A program made the position numbers and the translations under genes. From the NCBI RefSeq assembly GCF_002854065.1, contig NZ_CP024147.1: a stretch of 64,000 bases of DNA. One strand, written 5' to 3'. A model generated the notes under the pieces. That model worked only from the letters and a program-made list of their open reading frames with translations. It was not told the DNA's origin and did no database searches. This DNA is from Escherichia coli (GTDB taxonomy: Bacteria > Pseudomonadota > Gammaproteobacteria > Enterobacterales > Enterobacteriaceae). Below are positions 10,855-64,000 of the stretch, piece after piece (the stretch's first letter is position 1; each line of letters opens with the position of its first letter).

Positions 10855-10950
10855 TTATTCTCTTTCTGAATATAAAAATGAACCCTCAACGCTTCCCTCA
10901 ATGTTTGGGGAGCCATGCGGGTTCAATCATACACGGGAAGCGAGGCGCTT
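10855..10950 (-). ncRNA. sroE: Candidate SroE-type small RNA / structured element in the ispG-hisS spacer
   Basis: 110-bp spacer between ispG stop and hisS start contains a perfect 8-bp-stem hairpin (gggaagcg-cct-cgcttccc on the minus strand) and other structure; an sRNA called SroE is reported at this position in K-12 (recollection). Ends not determinable from sequence. Confidence 0.4.
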
Positions 10951-10962
10951 CCCATCACGTTA

Positions 10963-12081
10963 TTATTTTTCGACCTGCTGAACGTCAATTCGACGCGCTT
11001 CGTCCAGCTGACTGGCTTTCGCACGAATGCGTGCTTCCAGCTGGTCGATCATATCGTTGTTGTCCAGACGGTCTTTGCGCACGCCATCTTCATAGAGGCC
11101 GCTTTTCTTGTTGCCGCCGGTGACGCCGAGTGTAGAAACCAGCGCCTCACCCGGGCCATTCACCACGCAGCCGATAATCGAAACGTCCATCGGAGTGATG
11201 ATATCTTCCAGGCGTTGCTCCAGCGCGTTAACCGTACCGATAACATCAAACTCCTGACGCGAACAGGTCGGACAGGCGATGAAGTTGATACCTCGCGAAC
11301 GGATACGAAGCGATTTCAAAATATCGAAACCGACTTTGATCTCTTCGACCGGATCGGCCGCCAGTGATACGCGCAGCGTGTCGCCGATGCCTTCAGACAG
11401 CAGCAAACCTAAACCAATGGCGGATTTTACTGCCCCGCTGCGCGCGCCACCCGCTTCGGTGATCCCCAGATGCAGCGGCTGATCGATTTGTTTTGCCAGC
11501 AAACGATAAGACTCAACAGCGAGGAAGACGTCAGACGCTTTCACGCTGACTTTGAACTGATCGAAGTTCAGGCGATCGAGATGATCAACATGACGCATGG
11601 CGGATTCCAGCAACGCCTGCGGCGTCGGTTCGCCATACTTTTCTTGCAGATCTTTTTCCAGCGATCCGGCGTTAACGCCAATACGGATCGGAATGTTTTT
11701 ATCGCGCGCACAGTCAACCACCATGCGAATACGCTCTTCATTACCGATATTGCCAGGATTAATACGCAGACAATCGACGCCGTATTCCGCTACTTTCAGC
11801 GCAATGCGATAGTCGAAGTGGATGTCAGCCACCAGCGGCACGTTAACCTGCTGTTTGATGAGTTTGAACGCTTCTGCCGCGTCCATCGTCGGTACAGATA
11901 CACGGACGATATCAGCGCCAACGCGTTCCAGCGCCTTGATTTGATTGACCGTTGCTTCGACGTCTGTCGTACGCGTATTGGTCATGGACTGTACGGCGAT
12001 GGGAGCACCATCGCCAATCGGCACATTCCCAACGTAAATACGTGTTGATTTTCTACGTTGAATTGGAGCCTGGTTATGCAT
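10963..12081 (-). CDS. ispG: 4-hydroxy-3-methylbut-2-enyl diphosphate synthase IspG (GcpE)
   Basis: ORF track 372 aa, [39 protein letters not shown].. ; MEP-pathway enzyme. Confidence 0.95.
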
Positions 12082-23731: not shown

Positions 23732-23865
23732 GTTGAAATACTCTCTTTTATGCCTGGCTGTGTCAAGATAATAAACAGAGTAATTATTCAAACATGAGAG
23801 TATTATTCTTAATGGCCCTTTTCGCCGTCTCGCAAACGGGCGCTGGCTTTAGGAAAGGATGTTCC

Positions 23866-23961
23866 ATGACCGTAAATACAGGCACCCCACAGTGCTTGCT
23901 ATCGCGGCAATATCGCCAGTGGTGCTGTCGTGATGCGGTCTTCGCATGGACCGCACAATGA
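23866..23961 (+). CDS. Leader ORF (31 codons) with strong SD, translationally coupled to the downstream toxin-like ORF
   Basis: AGGAAAGGA 6 nt upstream of ATG; MTVNTGTPQCLLSRQYRQWCCRDAVFAWTAQ; its TGA stop overlaps the ATG of the next ORF (caATGA). Codons 5-10 coincide with the 16-nt antisense target. Coding status is inferred. Confidence 0.4.
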   Translation: MTVNTGTPQCLLSRQYRQWCCRDAVFAWTAQ

Positions 23962-24083
23962 AGATACGGTGCTTCTGTATCGTACTTATTGTTTCTGGTG
24001 CGCTGTTAACCGAGGTAAATAATAACCTGAGTCTCTCCGGCAACAATTTACTGGTGGTTAACAACCTTCAGAACAGCAGGTAA
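23958..24083 (+). CDS. Small hydrophobic toxin-like protein (41 aa), TimP/RyfA-type candidate
   Basis: MKIRCFCIVLIVSGALLTEVNNNLSLSGNNLLVVNNLQNSR; no own SD, start overlaps leader stop; identical amino-acid sequence in copy 2 with a single synonymous difference, whereas flanking DNA differs at many positions. Confidence 0.5.
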   Translation: MKIRCFCIVLIVSGALLTEVNNNLSLSGNNLLVVNNLQNSR

Positions 24084-24113
24084 GCCCGAATGCCGCCCTT
24101 TGGGGCGGCATAT

Positions 24114-24197
24114 TTAGATTATCCGATTCTGTTTAAAGTCACGCAAAAAACCACCCCAGCGACGTTCATAGAATGGCGCAATATGTTCGATATTAAA
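24114..24197 (-). pseudogene. Detached duplicate of the sseB 3' end (last ~25 codons plus stop)
   Basis: Minus-strand translation gives ..IEHIAPFYERRWGGFLRDFKQNRII*, identical to the C-terminus of the intact sseB at 24796-24880; no upstream coding continuation. Confidence 0.65.
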
Positions 24198-24311
24198 ATG
24201 ACCTGGCTTATTAGTCCGAATTCAGACAAATATAAACAAATCCCGCTCAATATTAAAAATACTAACCGGTAAAAGATATTACTTAAACATGTAAATTCAC
24301 TTTCTTTAAGC

Positions 24312-24415
24312 AACAAAAAACCGCCAAAATCAGGCGGTTATTTGTTGCCGGTTTGGTTCGCGGCCTCTCCAGCAGATTGACTTGTGTTGCATGAGCAACG
24401 CAGGTGCTTCACAGC
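24312..24415 (-). ncRNA. Candidate antisense sRNA of ryfA copy 2 (TimR/RyfB-like)
   Basis: Minus-strand promoter -35 TTGACA (24445-24450), 17-bp spacer, -10 GAATAT (24422-24427); 5' region complementary to caggtgcttcacagc (24401-24415), matching the copy-2 leader site caggtgtttcacagc (24560-24574) with one G-U wobble; terminator hairpin at 24318-24345. Confidence 0.45.
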
Positions 24416-24546
24416 AGAGCAATATTCGCCAGCAACTCTCTTTTTGTCAAGCAAAAGAGAGTAATTATTGTTTATTTAGCGTATTATCGACACCGGCCCT
24501 TTCCGCCGTCTCGCAAACGGGCGCTGGCTTTAGGAAAGGATGTTCC

Positions 24547-24642
24547 GTGGCCGTAAATGCAGGTGTTTCACAGCGCTTGCTATCGCGGCAATATCGCCAG
24601 TGGTGCTGTCGTGATGCGGTCTTCGCATGGACCGCACAATGA
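24547..24642 (+). CDS. Leader ORF of copy 2 (GTG start), coupled to the toxin-like ORF
   Basis: Same SD AGGAAAGGA; GTG instead of ATG; five amino-acid differences in the first 10 codons, all inside the antisense target; stop overlaps the next ATG. Confidence 0.35.
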   Translation: MAVNAGVSQRLLSRQYRQWCCRDAVFAWTAQ

Positions 24643-24764
24643 AGATACGGTGCTTTTGTATCGTACTTATTGTTTCTGGTGCGCTGTTAACCGAGGTAAA
24701 TAATAACCTGAGTCTCTCCGGCAACAATTTACTGGTGGTTAACAACCTTCAGAACAGCAGGTAA
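24639..24764 (+). CDS. Small hydrophobic toxin-like protein (41 aa), copy 2
   Basis: Same protein as copy 1 (MKIRCFCIVLIVSGALL..), one synonymous change (TTC to TTT). Confidence 0.5.
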   Translation: MKIRCFCIVLIVSGALLTEVNNNLSLSGNNLLVVNNLQNSR

Positions 24765-24795
24765 GCCCGAATGCCGCCCTTTGGGGCGGCATATT

Positions 24796-25572
24796 TTAGA
24801 TTATCCGGTTCTGTTTAAAGTCACGCAAAAAACCACCCCAACGACGTTCATAGAATGGCGCAATATGTTCGGTAATAAAGTGGCTAATTCCTTTTTCCCC
24901 TTTTTTCACCTGACAAATATCGATTGGTTCATCGCCAGGTAATGTATCGGTCGCTACACTTCCCGCCGCCTGAATAATTTCTTCGATATCACCATCGGCT
25001 TCAATGCCAATAAGTAAATTAGGCTGTGCCTCTTCGTTCTCTTTAATTGAACATATAAAAGCACGCTTCACCGGCTTAATAGTTTTAAATAAGGTGGTGA
25101 GTGAATCAATCATTTGTGCTGGCGGCTCTGCGACTTCCGATAATATTAGCGATTCACCGCCTTCCAGTACTTCCTGGCTACTCAGCGGATTCCCTTCTTC
25201 ACCAATCAACAAACTGATTTCACGCGGCATAAATTCTTTACCGGTTGGCAGTTTGGCATTAAGGAAGAGCGTTTCGCCAAGGGTCATCTCAAACAATGTG
25301 CGAACGGGCATTACTACAAATGCCTGTTCGTCTTCAACCGCCTGTTGAAGTGCTTCTAACGAGGTAAAAAAAGGAATGACGCTGGTGCCGTCTTCTTTTT
25401 CCCAATGCTGTAAATCAAGCGCACTATCTTCAACCACAGCCTCGCCCTGCGCCGCCGTACCAGGCACCCAGACGGTGGATCCCAGTAGAGTACGGAAAAA
25501 GGCCGGGCGGTGCGCCGGTTCGGTTGCTGCTTTTTCCAGCAGGTCTTCAAGTTCGTTTTTTGTTTCGGACAT
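24796..25572 (-). CDS. sseB: Protein SseB (enhanced serine sensitivity)
   Basis: ORF track frame 24796-25581; conserved start MSETKNELEDLLEKAATEP at ATG 25570-25572 (258 aa). Confidence 0.9.
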   Translation of the reverse strand: MSETKNELEDLLEKAATEPAHRPAFFRTLLGSTVWVPGTAAQGEAVVEDSALDLQHWEKEDGTSVIPFFTSLEALQQAVEDEQAFVVMPVRTLFEMTLGETLFLNAKLPTGKEFMPREISLLIGEEGNPLSSQEVLEGGESLILSEVAEPPAQMIDSLTTLFKTIKPVKRAFICSIKENEEAQPNLLIGIEADGDIEEIIQAAGSVATDTLPGDEPIDICQVKKGEKGISHFITEHIAPFYERRWGGFLRDFKQNRII

Positions 25573-32052: not shown

Positions 32053-32163
32053 TGCTCTATAAACTCCGTACATCACTCAATGCAAGGAACCAGGCTACCG
32101 GCTGGATGTACGACCGTGTTTACGGAGTATTTAGCACTCCGGCCTGATTCTGAATTCTTTTTA

Positions 32164-54458: not shown

Positions 54459-55712
54459 TTATGCGTAAACCGGGTAACGTGCGCAGATGTCGAGAACTTT
54501 ACCTTTGATACGCTCGATAACGGCTTCATCATTGATGCTGTCCAGCACGTCACACATCCAGCCAGCCAGTTCTTTCGCTTCTGCTTCTTTGAAGCCGCGA
54601 CGCGTAATCGCCGGAGTACCCACGCGAATACCGGAGGTCACAAACGGGCTCTTCGGATCGTTCGGTACGCTGTTTTTGTTGACGGTGATGTTAGCACGGC
54701 CCAGAGCGGCGTCTGCTTCTTTACCGGTCAGGTTTTTATCTACCAGATCAACCAGGAACAGATGGTTATCAGTACCGCCGGAAACCACTTTGTAGCCGCG
54801 TTCCAGGAACACTTCTACCATCGCTTTAGCGTTTTTAGCGACCTGCTGCTGGTAAGTTTTGAACTCAGGCTCCATCGCTTCTTTCAGAGCAACCGCTTTA
54901 CCGGCGATTACGTGCATCAACGGACCGCCCTGACCACCAGGGAAAACGGCAGAGTTCAGTTTTTTGTACAGCTCTTCGCTACCACCTTTCGCCAGGATCA
55001 GGCCGCCGCGCGGACCCGCCAGGGTTTTGTGAGTGGTGGTAGTAACAACGTGAGCATGAGGAACCGGGTTCGGGTAGACGCCAGCAGCAACCAGGCCCGC
55101 AACGTGCGCCATATCAACGAACAGGTAAGCGCCGATGCTGTCAGCGATTTCACGCATTTTCGCCCAGTCCACCACGCCGGAATATGCAGAGAAGCCACCG
55201 ATAATCATTTTCGGTTTGTGTTCTTTGGCTTGTTTTTCCAGATCGGCGTAGTCGATATGACCGGTAGCATCAATACCGTAAGGAACGATGTTGTACAGTT
55301 TACCGGAGAAGTTAACCGGAGAACCGTGAGTCAGGTGACCGCCATGCGCCAGGTTCATACCCAGAACGGTATCACCTGGTTCCAGCAGCGCGGTGTAGAC
55401 CGCAAAGTTAGCCTGGGAGCCGGAGTGCGGCTGGACGTTAGCGTAGTCAGCGCCGAACAGTTCTTTCGCACGATCGATCGCCAGTTGTTCAACGATATCA
55501 ACATACTCGCAACCGCCGTAGTAGCGTTTGCCCGGATAACCTTCAGCATATTTGTTGGTCAGCTGAGAACCCTGCGCCTGCATTACGCGCGGGCTGGTGT
55601 AGTTTTCGGAGGCGATCAGTTCGATGTGCTCTTCCTGACGTACTTTTTCCTGCTCCATAGCCTGCCACAGTTCGGCATCATAATCGGCAATGTTCATTTC
55701 ACGCTTTAACAT
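54459..55712 (-). CDS. glyA: Serine hydroxymethyltransferase
   Basis: ORF track frame 54459-55718; conserved start [12 protein letters not shown] at ATG 55710-55712 (417 aa); PLP site ..TTTTHKTL... Confidence 0.96.
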
Positions 55713-55990
55713 CCGCATCTCCTGACTCAGCTAACAATAAAATTTTTGGCCTTTATAGGCGGTCCTGTTGGACAACGGCGAACAGTATAACCGAATCATT
55801 GTGCGATAACAGGTCTTGACAAAGGAATTTACGCAAACGATTACCTTCAGGCTACGCAAGGCTTTGGAGAATAAAGAGCTTGCAACCGGAAACGGATTTC
55901 TTTTCAGGTTTGTGATGCAAATTTTTCACTTCATCACATTCTTTCTGAAAAACACCAAAGAACCATTTACATTGCAGGGCTATTTTTTAT

Positions 55991-56013
55991 AAGATGCATT
56001 TGAGATACATCAA
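55991..56013 (+). promoter_or_regulatory. NsrR operator-like inverted repeat in the hmp promoter
   Basis: aagatgcatttgagatacatcaa, an AT-rich inverted repeat (AAGATGCATTT / inverse) 27 bp upstream of the hmp ATG; matches my recollection of the NsrR site at hmp. Confidence 0.55.
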
Positions 56014-56039
56014 TTAAGATGCAAAAAAAGGAAGACCAT

Positions 56040-57230
56040 ATGCTTGACGCTCAAACCATCGCTACAGTAAAAGCCACCATCCCTTTACTGGTGGAAACGG
56101 GGCCAAAGTTAACCGCCCATTTCTACGACCGTATGTTTACTCATAACCCAGAACTCAAAGAAATTTTTAACATGAGTAACCAGCGTAATGGCGATCAACG
56201 TGAAGCCCTGTTTAACGCTATTGCCGCCTACGCCAGTAATATTGAAAACCTGCCTGCGCTGCTGCCAGCGGTAGAAAAAATCGCGCAGAAGCACACCAGT
56301 TTCCAGATCAAACCGGAACAGTACAACATCGTCGGTGAACACCTGTTGGCAACGCTGGACGAAATGTTCAGCCCGGGGCAGGAAGTGCTGGACGCGTGGG
56401 GTAAAGCCTATGGTGTACTGGCTAATGTATTTATCAATCGCGAGGCGGAAATCTATAACGAAAACGCCAGCAAAGCCGGTGGTTGGGAAGGTACTCGCGA
56501 TTTCCGCATTGTGGCTAAAACACCGCGCAGCGCGCTTATCACCAGCTTCGAACTGGAGCCGGTCGACGGTGGCGCAGTGGCAGAATACCGTCCGGGGCAA
56601 TATCTCGGCGTCTGGCTGAAGCCGGAAGGTTTCCCGCATCAGGAAATTCGTCAGTACTCTTTGACTCGCAAACCGGATGGCAAAGGCTATCGTATTGCGG
56701 TGAAACGCGAAGAGGGTGGGCAGGTATCCAACTGGTTGCACAATCACGCCAATGTTGGCGATGTCGTGAAACTGGTCGCTCCGGCAGGTGATTTCTTTAT
56801 GGCTGTCGCAGATGACACACCAGTGACGTTAATCTCTGCCGGTGTTGGTCAAACGCCAATGCTGGCAATGCTCGACACGCTGGCAAAAGCAGGCCACACA
56901 GCACAAGTGAACTGGTTCCATGCGGCAGAAAATGGCGATGTTCACGCCTTTGCCGATGAAGTTAAGGAACTGGGGCAGTCACTGCCGCGCTTTACCGCGC
57001 ACACCTGGTATCGTCAGCCGAGCGAAGCCGATCGCGCTAAAGGTCAGTTTGATAGCGAAGGTCTGATGGATTTGAGCAAACTGGAAGGTGCGTTCAGCGA
57101 TCCGACAATGCAGTTCTATCTCTGCGGCCCGGTTGGCTTCATGCAGTTTGCCGCGAAACAGTTAGTGGATCTGGGCGTGAAGCAGGAAAACATTCATTAC
57201 GAATGCTTTGGCCCGCATAAGGTGCTGTGA
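56040..57230 (+). CDS. hmp: Flavohemoglobin (nitric oxide dioxygenase)
   Basis: ORF track frame 56019-57230; conserved start [15 protein letters not shown] at ATG 56040 (396 aa) with AAGGAAG SD; globin plus FAD/NAD reductase domains. Confidence 0.96.
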
Positions 57231-57274
57231 TTTGATGTTGCCGGATGGAAACATCCGGCAACCCTTGACGCGGT

Positions 57275-57649
<375 letters not shown>

Positions 57650-57673
57650 CTAAACGTAACACATAACGCCAAT

Positions 57674-59008
57674 TCATTCCTTGAAATCGTTTGCATCCAG
57701 CTCGTGTCGGGAAAGCAGTTTATAAAATTCTGTCCGGTTGCGCCCCGCCATTCTCGCCGCGTGGGTGACGTTGCCTTTGGTAATTTGCAGCAGCTTACGC
57801 AAATAGTTGAGTTCAAACTGATTACGTGCCTCAACAAAGGTTGGCAGCGCCGTGTTTTCGCCCTCCAGCGCCTGCTCTACTAATGCATCACTAATCACCG
57901 GAGATGAGGTCAGCGCCACGCACTGTTCAATCACGTTGACCAACTGGCGCACATTACCCGGCCAGCTCGCGGTCATCAGGCGTTTCATCGCATCGGTAGA
58001 GAACGCGCGGACAAACGGTTTATGTCGCTCTGCCGCCTGGCGCAACAGGTGATTTGCCAGTAGCGGAATGTCTTCTGTGCGCTCCGCCAGTGCCGGAATT
58101 TTCAGGCTGACAACGTTGAGGCGGTAATAGAGATCTTCGCGGAATTCCCCGCGCGCCATCGCTTTTGGCAGATCACGGTGAGTGGCAGAAATAATCCGCA
58201 CATTGATATCAATATCGTGGTTACTGCCCAACGGGCGCACTTTACGCTCCTGCAACACGCGCAACAGTTTGACCTGCAACGGCGCAGGCATATCGCCAAT
58301 CTCATCGAGAAATAGCGTTCCGCCTTCCGCCGCCTGGAATAAACCTTCGCGATTGCTGACAGCGCCAGTAAACGCGCCACGCGCATGACCAAACAGCTCC
58401 GACTCCAGCAATTGCTCGGGCAATGCACCACAGTTAATAGCAATAAATGGTTTGCTATTGCGCGGGCTGGCGTTGTGGATAGCCTGGGCGAAAATCTCTT
58501 TCCCGGTGCCGCTCTGGCCATTAATCAAAACGCTGACGTCTGATTGCGCCACCAGCCGCGCCTGTTCCAGCAAACGCAGCATCAGCGGGCTGCGGGTGAC
58601 AATCGCCTCGCGCCAGCGTTCGTCGGTGGCTGGCGCGGATTGTTCCAGCGCATCATCAATTGCCTGATATAGCGCGTCTTTATCGACAGGCTTGGTGAGG
58701 AAACTAAAAACGCCCTGCTGTGTTGCAGCAACGGCATCAGGAATAGAACCATGCGCGGTAAGAATAATTACCGGCATTCCCGGCTGCACTTTCTGGATTT
58801 CAGCAAACAGCTGCATACCGTCCATTTCATCCATCCGCAGGTCGCTGATAACTAAATCTACTTTTTCGCGATTCAGTACCCGTAATCCTTCAGCGCCACT
58901 TTCCGCCGTGACCACACTGTAGCCTTCGCTGGTCAGGCGCAGGCCAAGCAGTTTCAGCAATCCCGGATCGTCATCGACCAATAATAAATGCGCAGGTTTA
59001 TGGCTCAT
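57674..59008 (-). CDS. glrR: Sigma54-dependent two-component response regulator GlrR
   Basis: ORF track frame 57674-59110; conserved start MSHKPAHLLLVDDDPG at ATG 59006-59008 (444 aa); receiver domain, AAA+ sigma54-activation domain (GQSGTGKE, GAFTGA), C-terminal HTH. Confidence 0.93.
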   Translation of the reverse strand: MSHKPAHLLLVDDDPGLLKLLGLRLTSEGYSVVTAESGAEGLRVLNREKVDLVISDLRMDEMDGMQLFAEIQKVQPGMPVIILTAHGSIPDAVAATQQGVFSFLTKPVDKDALYQAIDDALEQSAPATDERWREAIVTRSPLMLRLLEQARLVAQSDVSVLINGQSGTGKEIFAQAIHNASPRNSKPFIAINCGALPEQLLESELFGHARGAFTGAVSNREGLFQAAEGGTLFLDEIGDMPAPLQVKLLRVLQERKVRPLGSNHDIDINVRIISATHRDLPKAMARGEFREDLYYRLNVVSLKIPALAERTEDIPLLANHLLRQAAERHKPFVRAFSTDAMKRLMTASWPGNVRQLVNVIEQCVALTSSPVISDALVEQALEGENTALPTFVEARNQFELNYLRKLLQITKGNVTHAARMAGRNRTEFYKLLSRHELDANDFKE

Positions 59009-59711
59009 CAGGAGTGACCTCATGGGTGGATGGCGCGGGCTTTTCACCCTCGTGCGGCGTATCCGGCGAGAAATTTCCAGCCGGTTTGCGGGTCGAGAGC
59101 TGGCGTTCAATATCAGTCAGGTTTTCCAGCTTGCGGGTGGTGAGTTCCAGTTGCTGCTGTAGAACGTGATGTTGCTGGCGCAATATATCCAGCTCGCTGT
59201 CGCTGGACTGCTGGAGTTTACTGTAGCGTTGGCGCTCTTCCGCCAGTTGCAGTTGCAGCGCCTGACCGTCGCGCCAGAGTTGATACAGTGGGCGAACCTG
59301 TGCCGGGATCTCGGTACTTAACGCTTCAATACGCGCGACCAGCTGGCGGCGCTCATATGGCGTAATTTTGGCGTCGGCGAGCAAAATCCCTTGTTTAAAG
59401 GTATTTTGCCAGCTGCCGTCGTCATATTGGCGAGCTTGCTGACGCGACTGCGCAGGCATTAAACGATCAGCACAATCCATCGCCCGCAGCCAGTAAAGCG
59501 GATTGGTTTCGGTTGATTTACCTTGCAGCGCCCAGATGTCGCTACATTCAGTAGAAAGATAGTCAGCCAGTTGATAAACCGGAATTTTTTCTTCTGCTGG
59601 CGTATCAATGGCTGGCTTATTGTGATTCTGCACGCAACCTAGCAATGCCAGACATGGCAGCCCTGCCAGCCACAGCCGTCGGGGCAATAATCGTTGAAAA
59701 ATGTGTCGCAT
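58998..59711 (-). CDS. qseG: Outer-membrane lipoprotein QseG
   Basis: ORF track frame 58998-59717; start MRHIFQRLLPRR at ATG 59709-59711 (237 aa); lipobox LALLGC; 3' end overlaps the glrR start by 11 bp. Confidence 0.88.
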   Translation of the reverse strand: MRHIFQRLLPRRLWLAGLPCLALLGCVQNHNKPAIDTPAEEKIPVYQLADYLSTECSDIWALQGKSTETNPLYWLRAMDCADRLMPAQSRQQARQYDDGSWQNTFKQGILLADAKITPYERRQLVARIEALSTEIPAQVRPLYQLWRDGQALQLQLAEERQRYSKLQQSSDSELDILRQQHHVLQQQLELTTRKLENLTDIERQLSTRKPAGNFSPDTPHEGEKPAPSTHEVTPDEP

Positions 59712-59875
59712 ATTCACCAGACTTAAAGCCTATCCCAGTGGGCGTAATTGTTGCAGACAGTTTGGACATGGACAGCGCGGAGAAACCGGAGCGTACATGT
59801 CGTACGTGAGGATTTCGAGCACTGCCCGGGGCCGAACTGACAAATAAAATAGCCTGATGGGATAGGCTGTTAGCA

Positions 59876-61303
59876 TTATTTCGTGTTTTTCGACGACGGT
59901 AATTCAATGCGGAAACAAACGTCTTGCCCGCTCTCGTCGACCAGATACAGTTCCCCTTGCATACGGCGAATACAATCCCTGGCAATGCTTAATCCCAGAC
60001 CGCTGCCCTTCACCGCCCCTTTTCGCTGGTGGCTTCCCTGAAAAAAGGGTTCGAAGATCATGGCGCGTTCCTCTTGCGGAATGGGCGTGCCTGTATTGAT
60101 GACATCAATATAAACCCGCGCACCATGTAAACTGCTGCGAAGGCAAATGTTACCGGATTCAGCCCCGTAGTGCACCGCATTGGAGTAAAGATTATCCAGT
60201 ACGCTCATCAGCAGCATTGGCTCCGCCAGGCAAGCTGTTGCTTTGAGATCGACGTCGGTATGCATCATTTTAGCCCGTGCGGGCAGGCTATGAGCAGAAA
60301 CTACTGTCTCCACCAGCGGTGCTAACTCAACATTATCTAGTTCCACCGCACTGTCCGCCTGTTTACGGTTGTAATCAAGCAGTTGTTCGATCAGTTTTTG
60401 CAAATTGCGGCTGCTGCTATCAAGAATGCTCACCACCTCTTTTTGCTCTGGCGTAAGCGGCCCGACAACCTGATCAGCCAGTAATTCAGTGCCCTCGCGC
60501 ATACTCGCCAGTGGCGTTTTTAATTCATGAGATAAATGTCTTAAAAATTGATGGCGTTGGGATTCCAGCCATGACAGGCGCTCACTTAACCAAAGAATAC
60601 GTTGCCCAACCGAGCGTAACTCGCTCGGTCCACTGAACGAAACGCTATTGCCCAGAGAACGCCCTTCCCCCAACCGATTGATCATCCGTTCAATATTTTT
60701 CACCGGCCCGATAATCATCCGCGTGAAAAGCAGTACCATTACCAGACTCACCAGAAATAGCACCAGCGATTGCCAACCAAAATATTGCCCACGTTCGGCG
60801 ATTTCACGCTGAAGTTGCTGCCCACGAGAGAACACTACTGTGCGCGTGGCCTGTACCATTTCGGTATTGGCACTGGCAAAGGCTTCCAGACGCGCGGCAG
60901 CAGCAGCATCGGGACCACTGTTGTTGCACTGAAGTTGGGCCAGATTGTTCAAGTCCTGACGCAATGCCTGGTAAAGTTTATTGTCTGGCAGTACGCCTGC
61001 GTGGGCATCGAGCATTTCGCTGTAACGCTTGCGCTGGCTTTGATAAACCTTCGCAAGCGTAGGGTCATCCAGCACGCAATACTGACGGTAGCTACGCTCC
61101 ATCTCCAGCGCCGCGTTGGTCATTGCTTCGCTGCGCCGGGCATCGATAAGCGTGGTGCGGTTGACCAGCGCCGCCTGGTCGCTAAGCGCATTCAGGCTTT
61201 GCCAGGCTTGCCATGCCAGCACCAACAGGGGCAGCAGAATCAGCAAAAATGCCAGCATTACCAGTTGTCGTAATGAGCGGGGAAAAACGGGCCAGCGTTT
61301 CAA
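59876..61303 (-). CDS. glrK: Sensor histidine kinase GlrK (QseE)
   Basis: ORF track frame 59876-61366 would run through the glmY terminator; conserved N-terminus (M)KRWPVFPRSLRQLV begins at a TTG codon (61301-61303), giving 475 aa; HAMP region and HELKTP phospho-acceptor box. Confidence 0.85.
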   Translation of the reverse strand: MKRWPVFPRSLRQLVMLAFLLILLPLLVLAWQAWQSLNALSDQAALVNRTTLIDARRSEAMTNAALEMERSYRQYCVLDDPTLAKVYQSQRKRYSEMLDAHAGVLPDNKLYQALRQDLNNLAQLQCNNSGPDAAAAARLEAFASANTEMVQATRTVVFSRGQQLQREIAERGQYFGWQSLVLFLVSLVMVLLFTRMIIGPVKNIERMINRLGEGRSLGNSVSFSGPSELRSVGQRILWLSERLSWLESQRHQFLRHLSHELKTPLASMREGTELLADQVVGPLTPEQKEVVSILDSSSRNLQKLIEQLLDYNRKQADSAVELDNVELAPLVETVVSAHSLPARAKMMHTDVDLKATACLAEPMLLMSVLDNLYSNAVHYGAESGNICLRSSLHGARVYIDVINTGTPIPQEERAMIFEPFFQGSHQRKGAVKGSGLGLSIARDCIRRMQGELYLVDESGQDVCFRIELPSSKNTK

Positions 61304-61360
61304 GGTGTTACTCTCGTCAGACGCGAATAGCCTGATGCTAACCGAGGGGAAGTTCAGATA

Positions 61361-61545
61361 CAACAAAGCCGGGAATTACCCGGCTTTGTTATGGAATAAG
61401 GCGGTGCCTAACTCGACGTTTCGCCCGATGGTTGATATAGCTACGCTGATATCAGAAGTTGGACGGCAGGCACCTTGTTGTGCGTCATTCGAATTTTATG
61501 TAGCACGTCCCGAAGGGGCTGACATAAGTCGGTGAATGAGCCACT
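61361..61545 (-). ncRNA. glmY: Small RNA GlmY
   Basis: Minus-strand sequence AGTGGCTCATTCACCGACTTATGTCAGCCCCTTCGGGACGTGC...AAAGCCGGGTAATTCCCGGCTTTGTTG matches my recollection of GlmY (about 184 nt); terminator hairpin at 61365-61387 plus U-rich tail; sits 58 bp upstream of glrK. Confidence 0.85.
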
Positions 61546-61555
61546 GGTTACTATT

Positions 61556-61573
61556 ATGCAGTAACTGTGCCAA
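61556..61573 (-). promoter_or_regulatory. Sigma54 (-24/-12) promoter of glmY
   Basis: Minus strand reads TGGCAC-agtta-CTGCA with the GC element 12 nt upstream of the GlmY 5' end; overlapping cataat could serve as a sigma70 -10. Confidence 0.8.
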
Positions 61574-61661
61574 TAAAGAAAATAGTTTGGTAACGTACTG
61601 ATTATACGCTGCTTTGAGGGGTTTATGGCTTCTTCGCTATTTGAATGTAAATCAGCCAGTG

Positions 61662-61679
61662 TGTCGCTAAAAAGAGACA
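61662..61679 (-). promoter_or_regulatory. GlrR binding site (TGTC-N10-GACA), distal to glmY promoter: site 1 of 3
   Basis: tgtcgctaaaaagagaca. Confidence 0.7.
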
Positions 61680-61724
61680 ACTTAAGATAAACTTATTAGA
61701 TAACATTAAAATCAATGAGTTAAA

Positions 61725-61742
61725 TGTCACCAAAAAGCGACA
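61725..61742 (-). promoter_or_regulatory. GlrR binding site (TGTC-N10-GACA): site 2 of 3
   Basis: tgtcaccaaaaagcgaca. Confidence 0.7.
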
Positions 61743-61757
61743 CAGCAAACCACCCAT

Positions 61758-61775
61758 TGTCGTGATTTACAGACA
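61758..61775 (-). promoter_or_regulatory. GlrR binding site (TGTC-N10-GACA): site 3 of 3
   Basis: tgtcgtgatttacagaca; abuts the purL terminator. Confidence 0.7.
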
Positions 61776-61803
61776 CAAAAAAGCTCCCTGAGTTGGGAGC
61801 TTA
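61776..61803 (-). terminator. Rho-independent terminator of purL
   Basis: aagctccc-tgagtt-gggagctt preceded on the plus strand by aaaaa (T run on the minus strand). Confidence 0.75.
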
Positions 61804-61822
61804 TAATAGCGGTTGGTATTTA

Positions 61823-61855
61823 ATGCCGGATGCGGCGTGAATGCCTCATCCGGGC
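61823..61855. repeat. REP palindromic unit
   Basis: atgccggatgcggcgtgaatgcctcatccgggc just downstream of the purL stop. Confidence 0.75.
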
Positions 61856-61878
61856 TGCAAAACCAATGGGCTGACGAC

Positions 61879-64000
61879 TTACCCCAACTGCTTACGTGCA
61901 TTGCGGAAAATGCGCATCCATGGACCATCCTCGCCCCAGTTTTCCGGATGCCAGGAGTTGCTGACAGTACGGAAAACACGTTCCGGGTGCGGCATCATAA
62001 TGGTAACTCGACCACTTTCAGTCGTGACTGCCGTAATACCATTCGGAGAACCGTTCGGGTTAGCCGGGTAGGTTTCAGTGACCTTGCCGAAGTTATCGAC
62101 ATAGCGCAGTGCCACCAGCCCTTTACTTTCCAGCGCCGCCAGATGCGCCGCATCACGCACTTCCACGCGCCCTTCACCATGAGAGACAGCAATCGGCATT
62201 TGCGAGCCCACCATCCCCTGCAACAGCAGCGACGGGCTTTGGGTCACTTCAACCAGGCTGAAACGCGCTTCAAAGCGATCGGAGGTATTGCGCACAAAAC
62301 GTGGCCACAACTCACTACCTGGGATCAGTTCACGCAGATTAGACATCATCTGGCAACCGTTACATACCCCCAGCGCCAGCGTTTGCGGACGGTGGAAGAA
62401 GGTTGCAAACTCATCGCGTACACGGTCATTGAACAGGATAGACTTCGCCCAACCTTCACCGGCACCCAGCACATCACCGTAGGAGAAACCACCGCACGCG
62501 ACCAGGGCGTGGAAATCCTCCAGTCCCGTGCGTCCAGTCAGCAGGTCGCTCATATGCACATCGATAGCATCAAAGCCCGCACGGTGGAAAGCTGCCGCCA
62601 TTTCAACATGCGAGTTCACGCCCTGCTCACGCAGTACGGCAACTTTCGGACGTGCGCCAGTGGCAATATACGGTGCTGCCACATCTTCGTTGATATCGAA
62701 CGACAGTTTTACATTCAGGCCCGGATCGGCGTCGTTTGATTTCGCCTGATGCTCCTGATCGGCACACTCCGGGTTGTCACGCAGGCGCTGCATCTGCCAG
62801 GTAGTTTCTGCCCACCAGACACGCAACGTAGTGCGGCTTTCGCTGAATACAGTCTGCCCATTGGCGGTAATCACAAAACGGTCACCGGAAACCGCCTGCC
62901 CAACATAATGGACGCAATCCGCAAGCCCATGCTGTGCCAGTACGGATTCGACCGCTTCACGGTCAGCGGCACGAACCTGAATCACCGCACCCAGTTCTTC
63001 GTTAAACAACGCCGCCAGGCGATCGTCACCCAGAGTGGCTATATCCGCGTCAATGCCGCAATGACCAGCAAAGGCCATTTCCGCCAGCGTTACCAGCAGG
63101 CCGCCATCAGAGCGGTCGTGATACGCCAGCAGCTTACGCTGTGCAACCAGCGCCTGAATCGCGTCATAGAAGCCTTTCAGTTGCGCGACATCGCGTACAT
63201 CTGCCGGTTTGTCGCCAAGCTGACGATAAACCTGCGCCAGCGCCGTTGCGCCCAGCGCGTTATTGCCTTTGCCCAAATCAATCAGCAGCAGTGCGTTATC
63301 TTCGGTAGAAAGCTGCGGCGTGATGGTGTGACGTACATCTTCCACGCGGGCAAATGCAGAAATCACCAGCGACAGCGGCGACGTCATTTCGCGCTCTTCG
63401 TTACCTTCCTGCCAGCGGGTTTTCATCGACATAGAGTCTTTACCCACCGGGATCGTCAGGCCCAGCGCCGGACAAAGCTCTTCGCCCACGGCTTTAACGG
63501 CTTCATACAGGCCCGCATCTTCACCAGGGTGGCCTGCCGCCGCCATCCAGTTGGCGGAAAGTTTAATGCGTTTGATATCGCCAATCTGTGTTGCGGCAAT
63601 ATTGGTTAACGCTTCACCGACCGCCAGACGGGCAGAGGCGGCGAAATCCAGCAGCGCAACCGGCGCACGCTCGCCAATCGCCATCGCTTCACCGTAGTAG
63701 CTGTCGAGGCTGGCGGTAGTGACAGCGCAGTTAGCGACCGGCACCTGCCACGGCCCCACCATCTGATCGCGCGCCACCATGCCGGTTACGCTGCGGTCAC
63801 CGATGGTCACCAGGAAAGTTTTCTCCGCCACGGTCGGCAGATGCAGTACGCGTTTCACCGCGTCTGCAATGGTGATCCCTTCACGGACCAGCGCATCGCC
63901 CTTCGCTTTCAGCGTTTGTACATCGCGGGTCATCTTCGGCGTTTTACCAAGCAGGACGTCCAGCGGCAGATCGATCGGCTGATTATCAAAATGACGATCG
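61879..64000 (-). CDS. purL: Phosphoribosylformylglycinamidine synthase PurL, C-terminal ~707 codons (glutaminase domain); gene continues past window end
   Basis: ORF track 61879-63933 starts at an internal Met; the frame stays open to the window edge; glutamine amidotransferase catalytic region (..[13 protein letters not shown]..). Confidence 0.93.

Follow-up and report, generated by a model that had tools for sequence, protein, structure and literature searches.

Organization of the purL-glmY-glrK segment

The window analyzed here, a 64-kb (64,000-nucleotide) stretch of Escherichia coli DNA, contains the intergenic segment between purL and glrK, all elements of which belong to the minus strand. 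The gene order purL-glmY-glrK-qseG-glrR is shared by the window and K-12. The 3' part of purL, encoding phosphoribosylformylglycinamidine synthase (61879-64000, minus strand, from the ORF list), is cut by the window end, with its stop codon at 61879-61881 on the same strand; strain CUWW06 and K-12 both have purL annotated at the corresponding position. Of 5426 complete E. coli genomes, 5425 have a match to positions 61250-61900 (651 bases); that of strain CUWW06 shows 100% identity to the window across this interval.

Downstream of glmY lies glrK (qseE, yfhK; 59876-61303, minus strand; b2556 in K-12, also annotated by PGAP), a TTG-initiated gene for a sensor histidine kinase of 475 aa, in which an N-terminal membrane-anchored sensor part is followed by HAMP, HisKA and HATPase_c domains (Pfam). 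Over its first 150 residues, the product is about 98% identical to K-12 GlrK. No NCBIfam match above cut-off was obtained for GlrK/QseE, the best models (CreC, CpxA) scoring below their own cut-offs, and the assignment of the gene as glrK is made from its near-identity to the K-12 and PGAP genes. Next come qseG (yfhG; 58998-59711, minus strand), encoding a lipoprotein without which GlrK/GlrR are not active (358.8 bits with NCBIfam equivalog NF007997, whose cut-off is 234; also annotated in K-12), and glrR (qseF, yfhA; 57674-59008, minus strand), encoding a sigma54-dependent response regulator (980.4 bits with NCBIfam equivalog NF011695, whose cut-off is 763). GlrR combines a receiver domain with a Sigma54_activat domain (E = 1.4e-73) and an HTH_8 segment (16.9 bits, below the Pfam cut-off of 22), and is encoded 2.3 kb downstream of the glmY promoter within the same window.

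The region is almost certainly the E. coli purL-glmY-glrK segment with its known glmY control system, and nothing that contradicts this reading was found in the window sequence. An earlier note, made from the letters of the DNA, had described 61361-61803 as a complete glmY control region adjoining glrK, and each element that it listed lies at the coordinates it gave, on the minus strand, which it had left unstated. Two parts of that description need amending. The range does hold the glmY control region, but its last 23 bases (61781-61803) belong to the purL terminator, and the list is not complete, since two IHF sites and an overlapping sigma70 promoter were omitted. The note had also called the loop in which GlrK/GlrR activate glmY known and not novel, in agreement with the published E. 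coli control elements (PMC3045617); the control region as a whole is already known, and none of its parts is new.

Between the purL stop codon and the purL terminator lies an imperfect palindrome, GCCGGATGCGGCGTGAATGCCTCATCCGGGC (61825-61855), which is REP-like as judged by the REP consensus. In the alignment, this element is 18 bp longer in the window than in K-12. Of 5426 complete E. coli genomes, 1872 have the full-length allele, with at least 80% of the query covered; in the remaining genomes among the matches listed, only the first 46 bases of the query align. This length polymorphism adjoins the glmY upstream activating region. The purL intrinsic terminator itself (61777-61802, minus strand), identified by a terminator scan and from the sequence, consists of the stem-loop AAGCTCCC-AACTCA-GGGAGCTT (61802-61781) and a T-tail; it abuts the distal GlrR site, ABS1, ending one base before it.

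The GlmY small RNA and its terminator

The earlier note had read GlmY from the sequence, and an Rfam covariance search bears this out. RF00128 (GlmY_tke1) matches 61545-61398 on the minus strand over the full model (1-163 of 163) with 147.1 bits, against a gathering score of 33, and E = 1.1e-33; it is the sole Rfam match within 55000-64000. The matched stretch accounts for 148 of the 184 nt of GlmY and presumably corresponds to a processed form. The full-length sRNA gene (glmY, 61362-61545, minus strand) was delimited by alignment with the K-12 ncRNA b4441, also of 184 nt, which places its ends at 61545 and 61362.

Structurally, the 184 nt folded alone give -64.2 kcal/mol (z = -5.5 relative to shuffles) and a three-part fold. 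The minimum-energy fold reproduces the Rfam stems and adds a 12-bp terminator hairpin, AACAAAGCCGGG-UAAUU-CCCGGCUUUGUU (61362-61390, minus strand), identical in K-12. A single base distinguishes this GlmY from that of K-12 (61492, nt 54, U instead of A), and by the Rfam structure line it falls in an unpaired stretch.

GlmY belongs to Rfam clan CL00011 together with GlmZ (RF00083), its base-pairing homologue with a homologous fold. In cmscan clan competition, only the best family is kept where clan matches overlap, and GlmY, not its clan partner GlmZ, was retained as the best model. Position agrees with this choice: GlmZ is encoded elsewhere, whereas the window locus adjoins glrK and is not at the glmZ position. 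The two genes also differ in their promoters, glmZ having the same sigma54/GlrR/IHF architecture in many Enterobacterales but, in Escherichia, nothing other than a sigma70 promoter (PMC3045617). K-12 GlmY is reported to bind RapZ, protect GlmZ and raise glmS expression (PMC4152352, PMC7073468). The window GlmY, one unpaired base apart, would probably serve as the same RapZ-binding, GlmZ-sparing RNA.

A sigma54 promoter with an overlapping sigma70 promoter

The sigma54 promoter of glmY, TGGCAC-AGTTA-CTGCA (TGGCACAGTTACTGCA; 61557-61572, minus strand), was located by a pattern search and coincides with a ChIP-seq site. Read from 61572 to 61557, it is the only TGGCAC-N6-TGCA match in 64 kb. At least one such match arises by chance in 20 of 100 shuffles, and a single match is weak evidence when taken alone. 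The assignment is secured by placement, because the GG (-26/-25) and GC (-14/-13) dinucleotides stand at the right distance from the first GlmY base (+1 = 61545). Relative to TGGCAC-N5-TTGCW, the motif shows one departure, a C for T before GCA. Furthermore, its 17-mer TTGGCACAGTTACTGCA is identical to the confirmed sigma54 ChIP-seq site OS24 upstream of glmY, for which GlrR is named as the activator (PMC4591121). The TGGCAC-N5-CTGCA promoter proposed in the earlier note is thus confirmed by position, by its distance to +1 and by identity with the ChIP-seq site.

A weak sigma70 promoter with a TG-extended -10 box, TGCATAAT (61553-61560, minus strand), is also readable in the sequence. Its -10 hexamer CATAAT overlaps the sigma54 -12 element, as published for glmY (PMC3045617). 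A generic scan of 61200-61950 found no sigma70 promoter and picked up neither that of glmY nor that of glrK; the glmY promoter was missed because it has no good -35. The silence of the scan fits the published weakness of both promoters and leaves their hexamers without scan support.

GlrR and IHF sites upstream of glmY

A pattern search finds TGTC-N10-GACA exactly three times in the 64-kb window, against 0.65 expected; a count of three or more occurs in 4 of 100 shuffles, making the whole-window count of three borderline. All three sites lie inside 114 bp, however, an arrangement with a chance probability of roughly 4e-7. The case for the GlrR sites and the sigma54 motif is carried by clustering, position and conservation, not by motif counts.

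The distal GlrR/QseF site, ABS1 (TGTCTGTAAATCACGACA on the minus strand; 61758-61775, -213 to -230), is the same in K-12. ABS2 (TGTCGCTTTTTGGTGACA on the minus strand; 61725-61742, -180 to -197) has the same half-sites as in K-12 and differs at 2 spacer bases, and the proximal site, ABS3 (TGTCTCTTTTTAGCGACA on the minus strand), occupies 61662-61679 (-117 to -134). These TGTC-N10-GACA sites are published as the GlrR elements of E. coli glmY, with ABS2 and ABS3 essential for the sigma54 promoter and ABS1 dispensable and less conserved (PMC3045617). The three boxes named in the earlier note are therefore the published control elements. Their description there as 'evenly phased' holds for helical phase but not for spacing: the centers of ABS1 and ABS2 are 33 bp apart and those of ABS2 and ABS3 63 bp, about 3 and 6 helical turns.

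Two IHF sites, one on each side of ABS3, complete the region, and both match the consensus WATCARNNNNTTR perfectly in a pattern search. The first, AATCAATGAGTTA (61710-61722, plus strand), lies between ABS2 and ABS3, and the second, AATCAGTACGTTA (61591-61603, minus strand, -46 to -58), between ABS3 and the promoter. In K-12, two IHF-like elements flank ABS3, and the sigma54 promoter requires both IHF and site 1; gel shifts and lacZ fusions in K-12 showed that GlrR and IHF bind and that transcription depends on them (PMC3045617). In the window, the GlrR and IHF sites are predicted from motif identity with K-12.

Conservation of the control region

The window closely follows K-12 glmY (b4441; Reichenbach et al. 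2009; Gopel et al. 2011, PMC3045617), which has the same sigma54 17-mer, the same -10 CATAAT, GlrR sites likewise at -134, -197 and -230, two IHF sites and the same terminator; K-12 glrK is likewise TTG-initiated after a 58-nt spacer. In the alignment, the sigma54 motif, the -10 box, the TGTC/GACA half-sites, the IHF sites, the terminator and the 58-nt spacer are unchanged, and about a dozen substitutions fall in non-motif DNA between sites. As judged by this alignment, no difference between the window and K-12 touches a defined element. The same contrast holds within the species: in 5362 of 5425 E. coli genomes, GlmY and the core promoter show 99% identity or more, whereas the whole 651 bp (61250-61900) reach that identity in only 34 genomes, and variation is therefore confined to non-motif DNA.

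Across the order, 95 loci with the GlmY pattern were collected from other Enterobacterales, 92 of them with glrK and 89 with enough upstream sequence; counted over segments, 92 of 98 have glrK on the downstream side of the GlmY pattern. The sigma54 motif is present in 88 of the 89 external loci, and three GlrR sites, each with at most one mismatch, in 80 of 89. In these 80 loci, ABS1-ABS2 spacing is always 32 or 33 bp, and ABS2 and ABS3 are 63 bp apart in 76 of them and 64 bp apart in the other 4. Nearly all related loci have a site at the ABS2 position, most have an IHF site at the -177 offset (equivalent to 61710-61722), and many have one at -58. The distance from ABS3 to the start steps between genera, with values of 134, about 151 and 161. 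The presence, position and conservation of every element are thereby established for this locus. Motif cores and their spacing are fixed over about 90 species and the DNA between sites is free to vary within E. coli, as would be expected of a looping enhancer, which is a known point.

Other sigma54 promoters, such as glnHp2 and the NifA-dependent nifH promoter, likewise combine activator sites more than 100 bp upstream with an intervening IHF bend and a GG-N10-GC core. In comparison with these, glmY is peculiar in that a sigma70 promoter with the identical start base overlaps its sigma54 promoter exactly, a feature already published.

The spacer between the GlmY terminator and glrK (61304-61361 in the window) is 58 nt in Escherichia and Citrobacter and several hundred nt in Serratia, Yersinia, Pectobacterium and some Klebsiella or Enterobacter.

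Probable separate transcription of glmY and glrK

From the GlmY 3' end (61362) to the glrK TTG codon (61303) there are 58 intervening nucleotides, the distance that the earlier note had given for the terminator; K-12 has the same gap, between the glmY end at 2691157 and the glrK start at 2691098. Transcription of qseE/glrK is reported to start 25 bp upstream of the start codon (PMC6075780). Transferred to the window, this start is at about 61328, and the weak sigma70 promoter of glrK-qseG-glrR would occupy 61328-61363 (minus strand). Its candidate hexamers are TAGCAT at 61340-61335 (-10) and TTGTAT at 61363-61358 (-35), the latter overlapping the GlmY terminator tail. Both are below the scan threshold, which would fit the low promoter activity reported for K-12 (PMC6075780).

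A promoter in the spacer would make glmY and glrK-qseG-glrR separate transcription units. Alternatively, the four genes could form one operon here through read-through of the terminator, with positive autoregulation as a consequence. The glmY-glrK gene order, kept in 92 of 98 segments, speaks for such an arrangement, and in enterohaemorrhagic E. coli glmY and qseEGF are reportedly described as one operon. Because operon reports exist for that pathogen and for Proteus mirabilis, the independence of glmY and glrK is not universal. The Proteus mirabilis case is one of glmY-qseEGF co-transcription (PMC8745638). In K-12, however, lacZ fusions with or without the whole glmY locus show the same low activity, deletion of qseF or qseG leaves that activity unchanged, and RT-PCR detects virtually no read-through of the GlmY terminator (PMC6075780). 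The terminator hairpin comprises 12 base pairs, and the window is identical to K-12 in both terminator and spacer. A glmY-glrK operon in this strain is accordingly improbable, and was rejected on the K-12 fusions, the RT-PCR result and the identical terminator.

The glrK start codon

Translation of glrK starts at TTG 61303. K-12 b2556 (475 aa, 1428 nt) and the PGAP qseE of CUWW06 both start at the base homologous to 61303, and a Shine-Dalgarno-like GAGAG lies 7 nt upstream of the codon. Of 92 Enterobacterales loci, 84 have TTG and 6 have GTG at the homologous start codon, and a GAGA motif 7-9 bases upstream is conserved. The CUWW06 qseE is one codon shorter than the window glrK (1425 versus 1428 nt), and the window thus stems from another strain closely related to CUWW06.

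The mechanical ORF list instead opens glrK at TTG 61366, and a start there or at TTG 61363 would give a protein of 495-496 aa whose first codons overlap the GlmY terminator. The frame is indeed open for 24 codons upstream of 61303, with two TTG codons, and it is also open in Citrobacter and other close relatives. Elsewhere, the extension breaks down. Kluyvera, Klebsiella, Kosakonia and others have a stop codon in this frame 3-11 codons before the homologous start. The interval separating the glrK start codon from the end of the GlmY search pattern ranges from 96 to 524 nt, and in 92 of 92 loci the tblastn similarity to GlrK sets in exactly at residue 1. TTG 61366 lacks a ribosome-binding motif and sits within the 3' arm of the GlmY terminator stem and its tail. 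It lies 63 nt upstream of 61303 and therefore, with transcription starting 25 bp upstream of the start codon (PMC6075780), is not on the glrK mRNA. Given in addition that 61303 is the annotated start in both K-12 and PGAP, the extended start is highly improbable, and the 496-aa ORF from TTG 61366 was rejected, its extension not being conserved in other genera. The earlier note was right to call this start wrong: the K-12 and PGAP starts, the published transcription start, the TTG or GTG codon in 90 of 92 loci and the unconserved extension all point the same way.

The start codon of glrK is the most surprising feature to emerge from the comparison. In the Escherichia, Citrobacter, Klebsiella and Kluyvera groups, glrK has no ATG alternative. 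It is possible, though rather doubtful, that the TTG/GTG start and the weak promoter in the 58-nt spacer form a selected throttle that keeps GlrK scarce relative to GlrR and QseG, in which case it would be QseG that determines how strongly the system responds. The Serratia, Yersinia and Pectobacterium group has an ATG three codons upstream of the homologous start that may be the real glrK start, and such a throttle would for this reason be less general.

The 79-aa open reading frame and annotation of the locus

The 79-aa ORF at 61441-61680 starts at a TTG that overlaps ABS3 at -135 and stops at GlmY nt 103-105. The frame, which runs across the promoter and the RNA gene, is open by chance. There is next to no prospect that it encodes a real small protein and makes the locus dual-function, for although the frame is open in the window, CUWW06 and K-12, its boundaries are kept only in these three, its start is 135 nt upstream of the GlmY transcription start and so outside the transcript, it has no Pfam or NCBIfam match, no CDS is annotated at its position in K-12 or PGAP genomes, and sequence conservation beneath it follows the promoter, the protein-binding sites and the RNA stems. 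At the same place, four other Escherichia genomes have 25-26 aa and a fifth 51 aa, and over 89 species the median length of the longest sense ORF overlapping the GlmY 5' half is 50 aa, with no consistent boundaries or frame. The earlier note had dismissed the ORF as an artefact, a judgement with which the start outside the transcript, the lack of a family match and the broken frame in other Escherichia agree.

The locus is useful mainly as quality control, with two ORF-calling artefacts corrected: the mechanical ORF list gives glrK 21 extra codons that run into the GlmY terminator, and it invents the 79-aa ORF. Such errors come easily at glmY because most RefSeq E. coli records have no feature there.

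Under the GlmY match (61362-61580), none of the six PGAP-annotated genomes among the matches listed has any feature; the K-12 record annotates ncRNA b4441 for glmY. It seems that GlmY is routinely left unannotated in RefSeq E. coli records.

Proposed regulatory circuit

The elements described above fit a mechanism worked out in K-12 (PMC3045617, PMC6075780, PMC4152352, PMC7073468). There is strong reason to expect that the K-12 findings on binding, activation, the IHF requirement, transcription starts and the decoy mechanism apply to this strain, because the sequence from -88 (61633) through the first glrK bases differs from K-12 by 1 base.

In such a circuit, GlrK would phosphorylate GlrR, with QseG required, and phosphorylated GlrR (QseF) would bind the three TGTC-N10-GACA palindromes at -117 to -230. 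IHF, bending the DNA at the two sites flanking ABS3, would allow GlrR to contact sigma54 RNA polymerase at TGGCAC-N5-CTGCA and the promoter to open. The weak and exactly overlapping sigma70 promoter (TG-CATAAT) would supply basal transcription from the same start base. The resulting GlmY, with its 184 nt and strong terminal hairpin, would act as a decoy for the adaptor protein RapZ. Once GlmY had sequestered RapZ, GlmZ would be spared from RNase E cleavage and would activate glmS translation when glucosamine-6-phosphate is scarce. The glrK-qseG-glrR genes would be transcribed separately, from the weak sigma70 promoter in the 58-nt spacer.

Other RNA elements in the window

Beyond the glmY locus, the window holds two tandem copies of the ryfA RNA (23812-24116 and 24493-24797) flanking an IS128 RNA match (24147-24357); ryfA is annotated in other records as the small toxin gene timP. 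The two copies are 98% identical, their differences lying mainly in the first 85 bases. Only 5600 places match ryfA in 5425 E. coli genomes, which makes two copies the less common state. The other Rfam matches above the gathering score are the ES036 (CssrF) sRNA (2351-2393), the sroE RNA (10872-10963) and the iscR stability element (32054-32163), all expected in this part of the E. coli chromosome.
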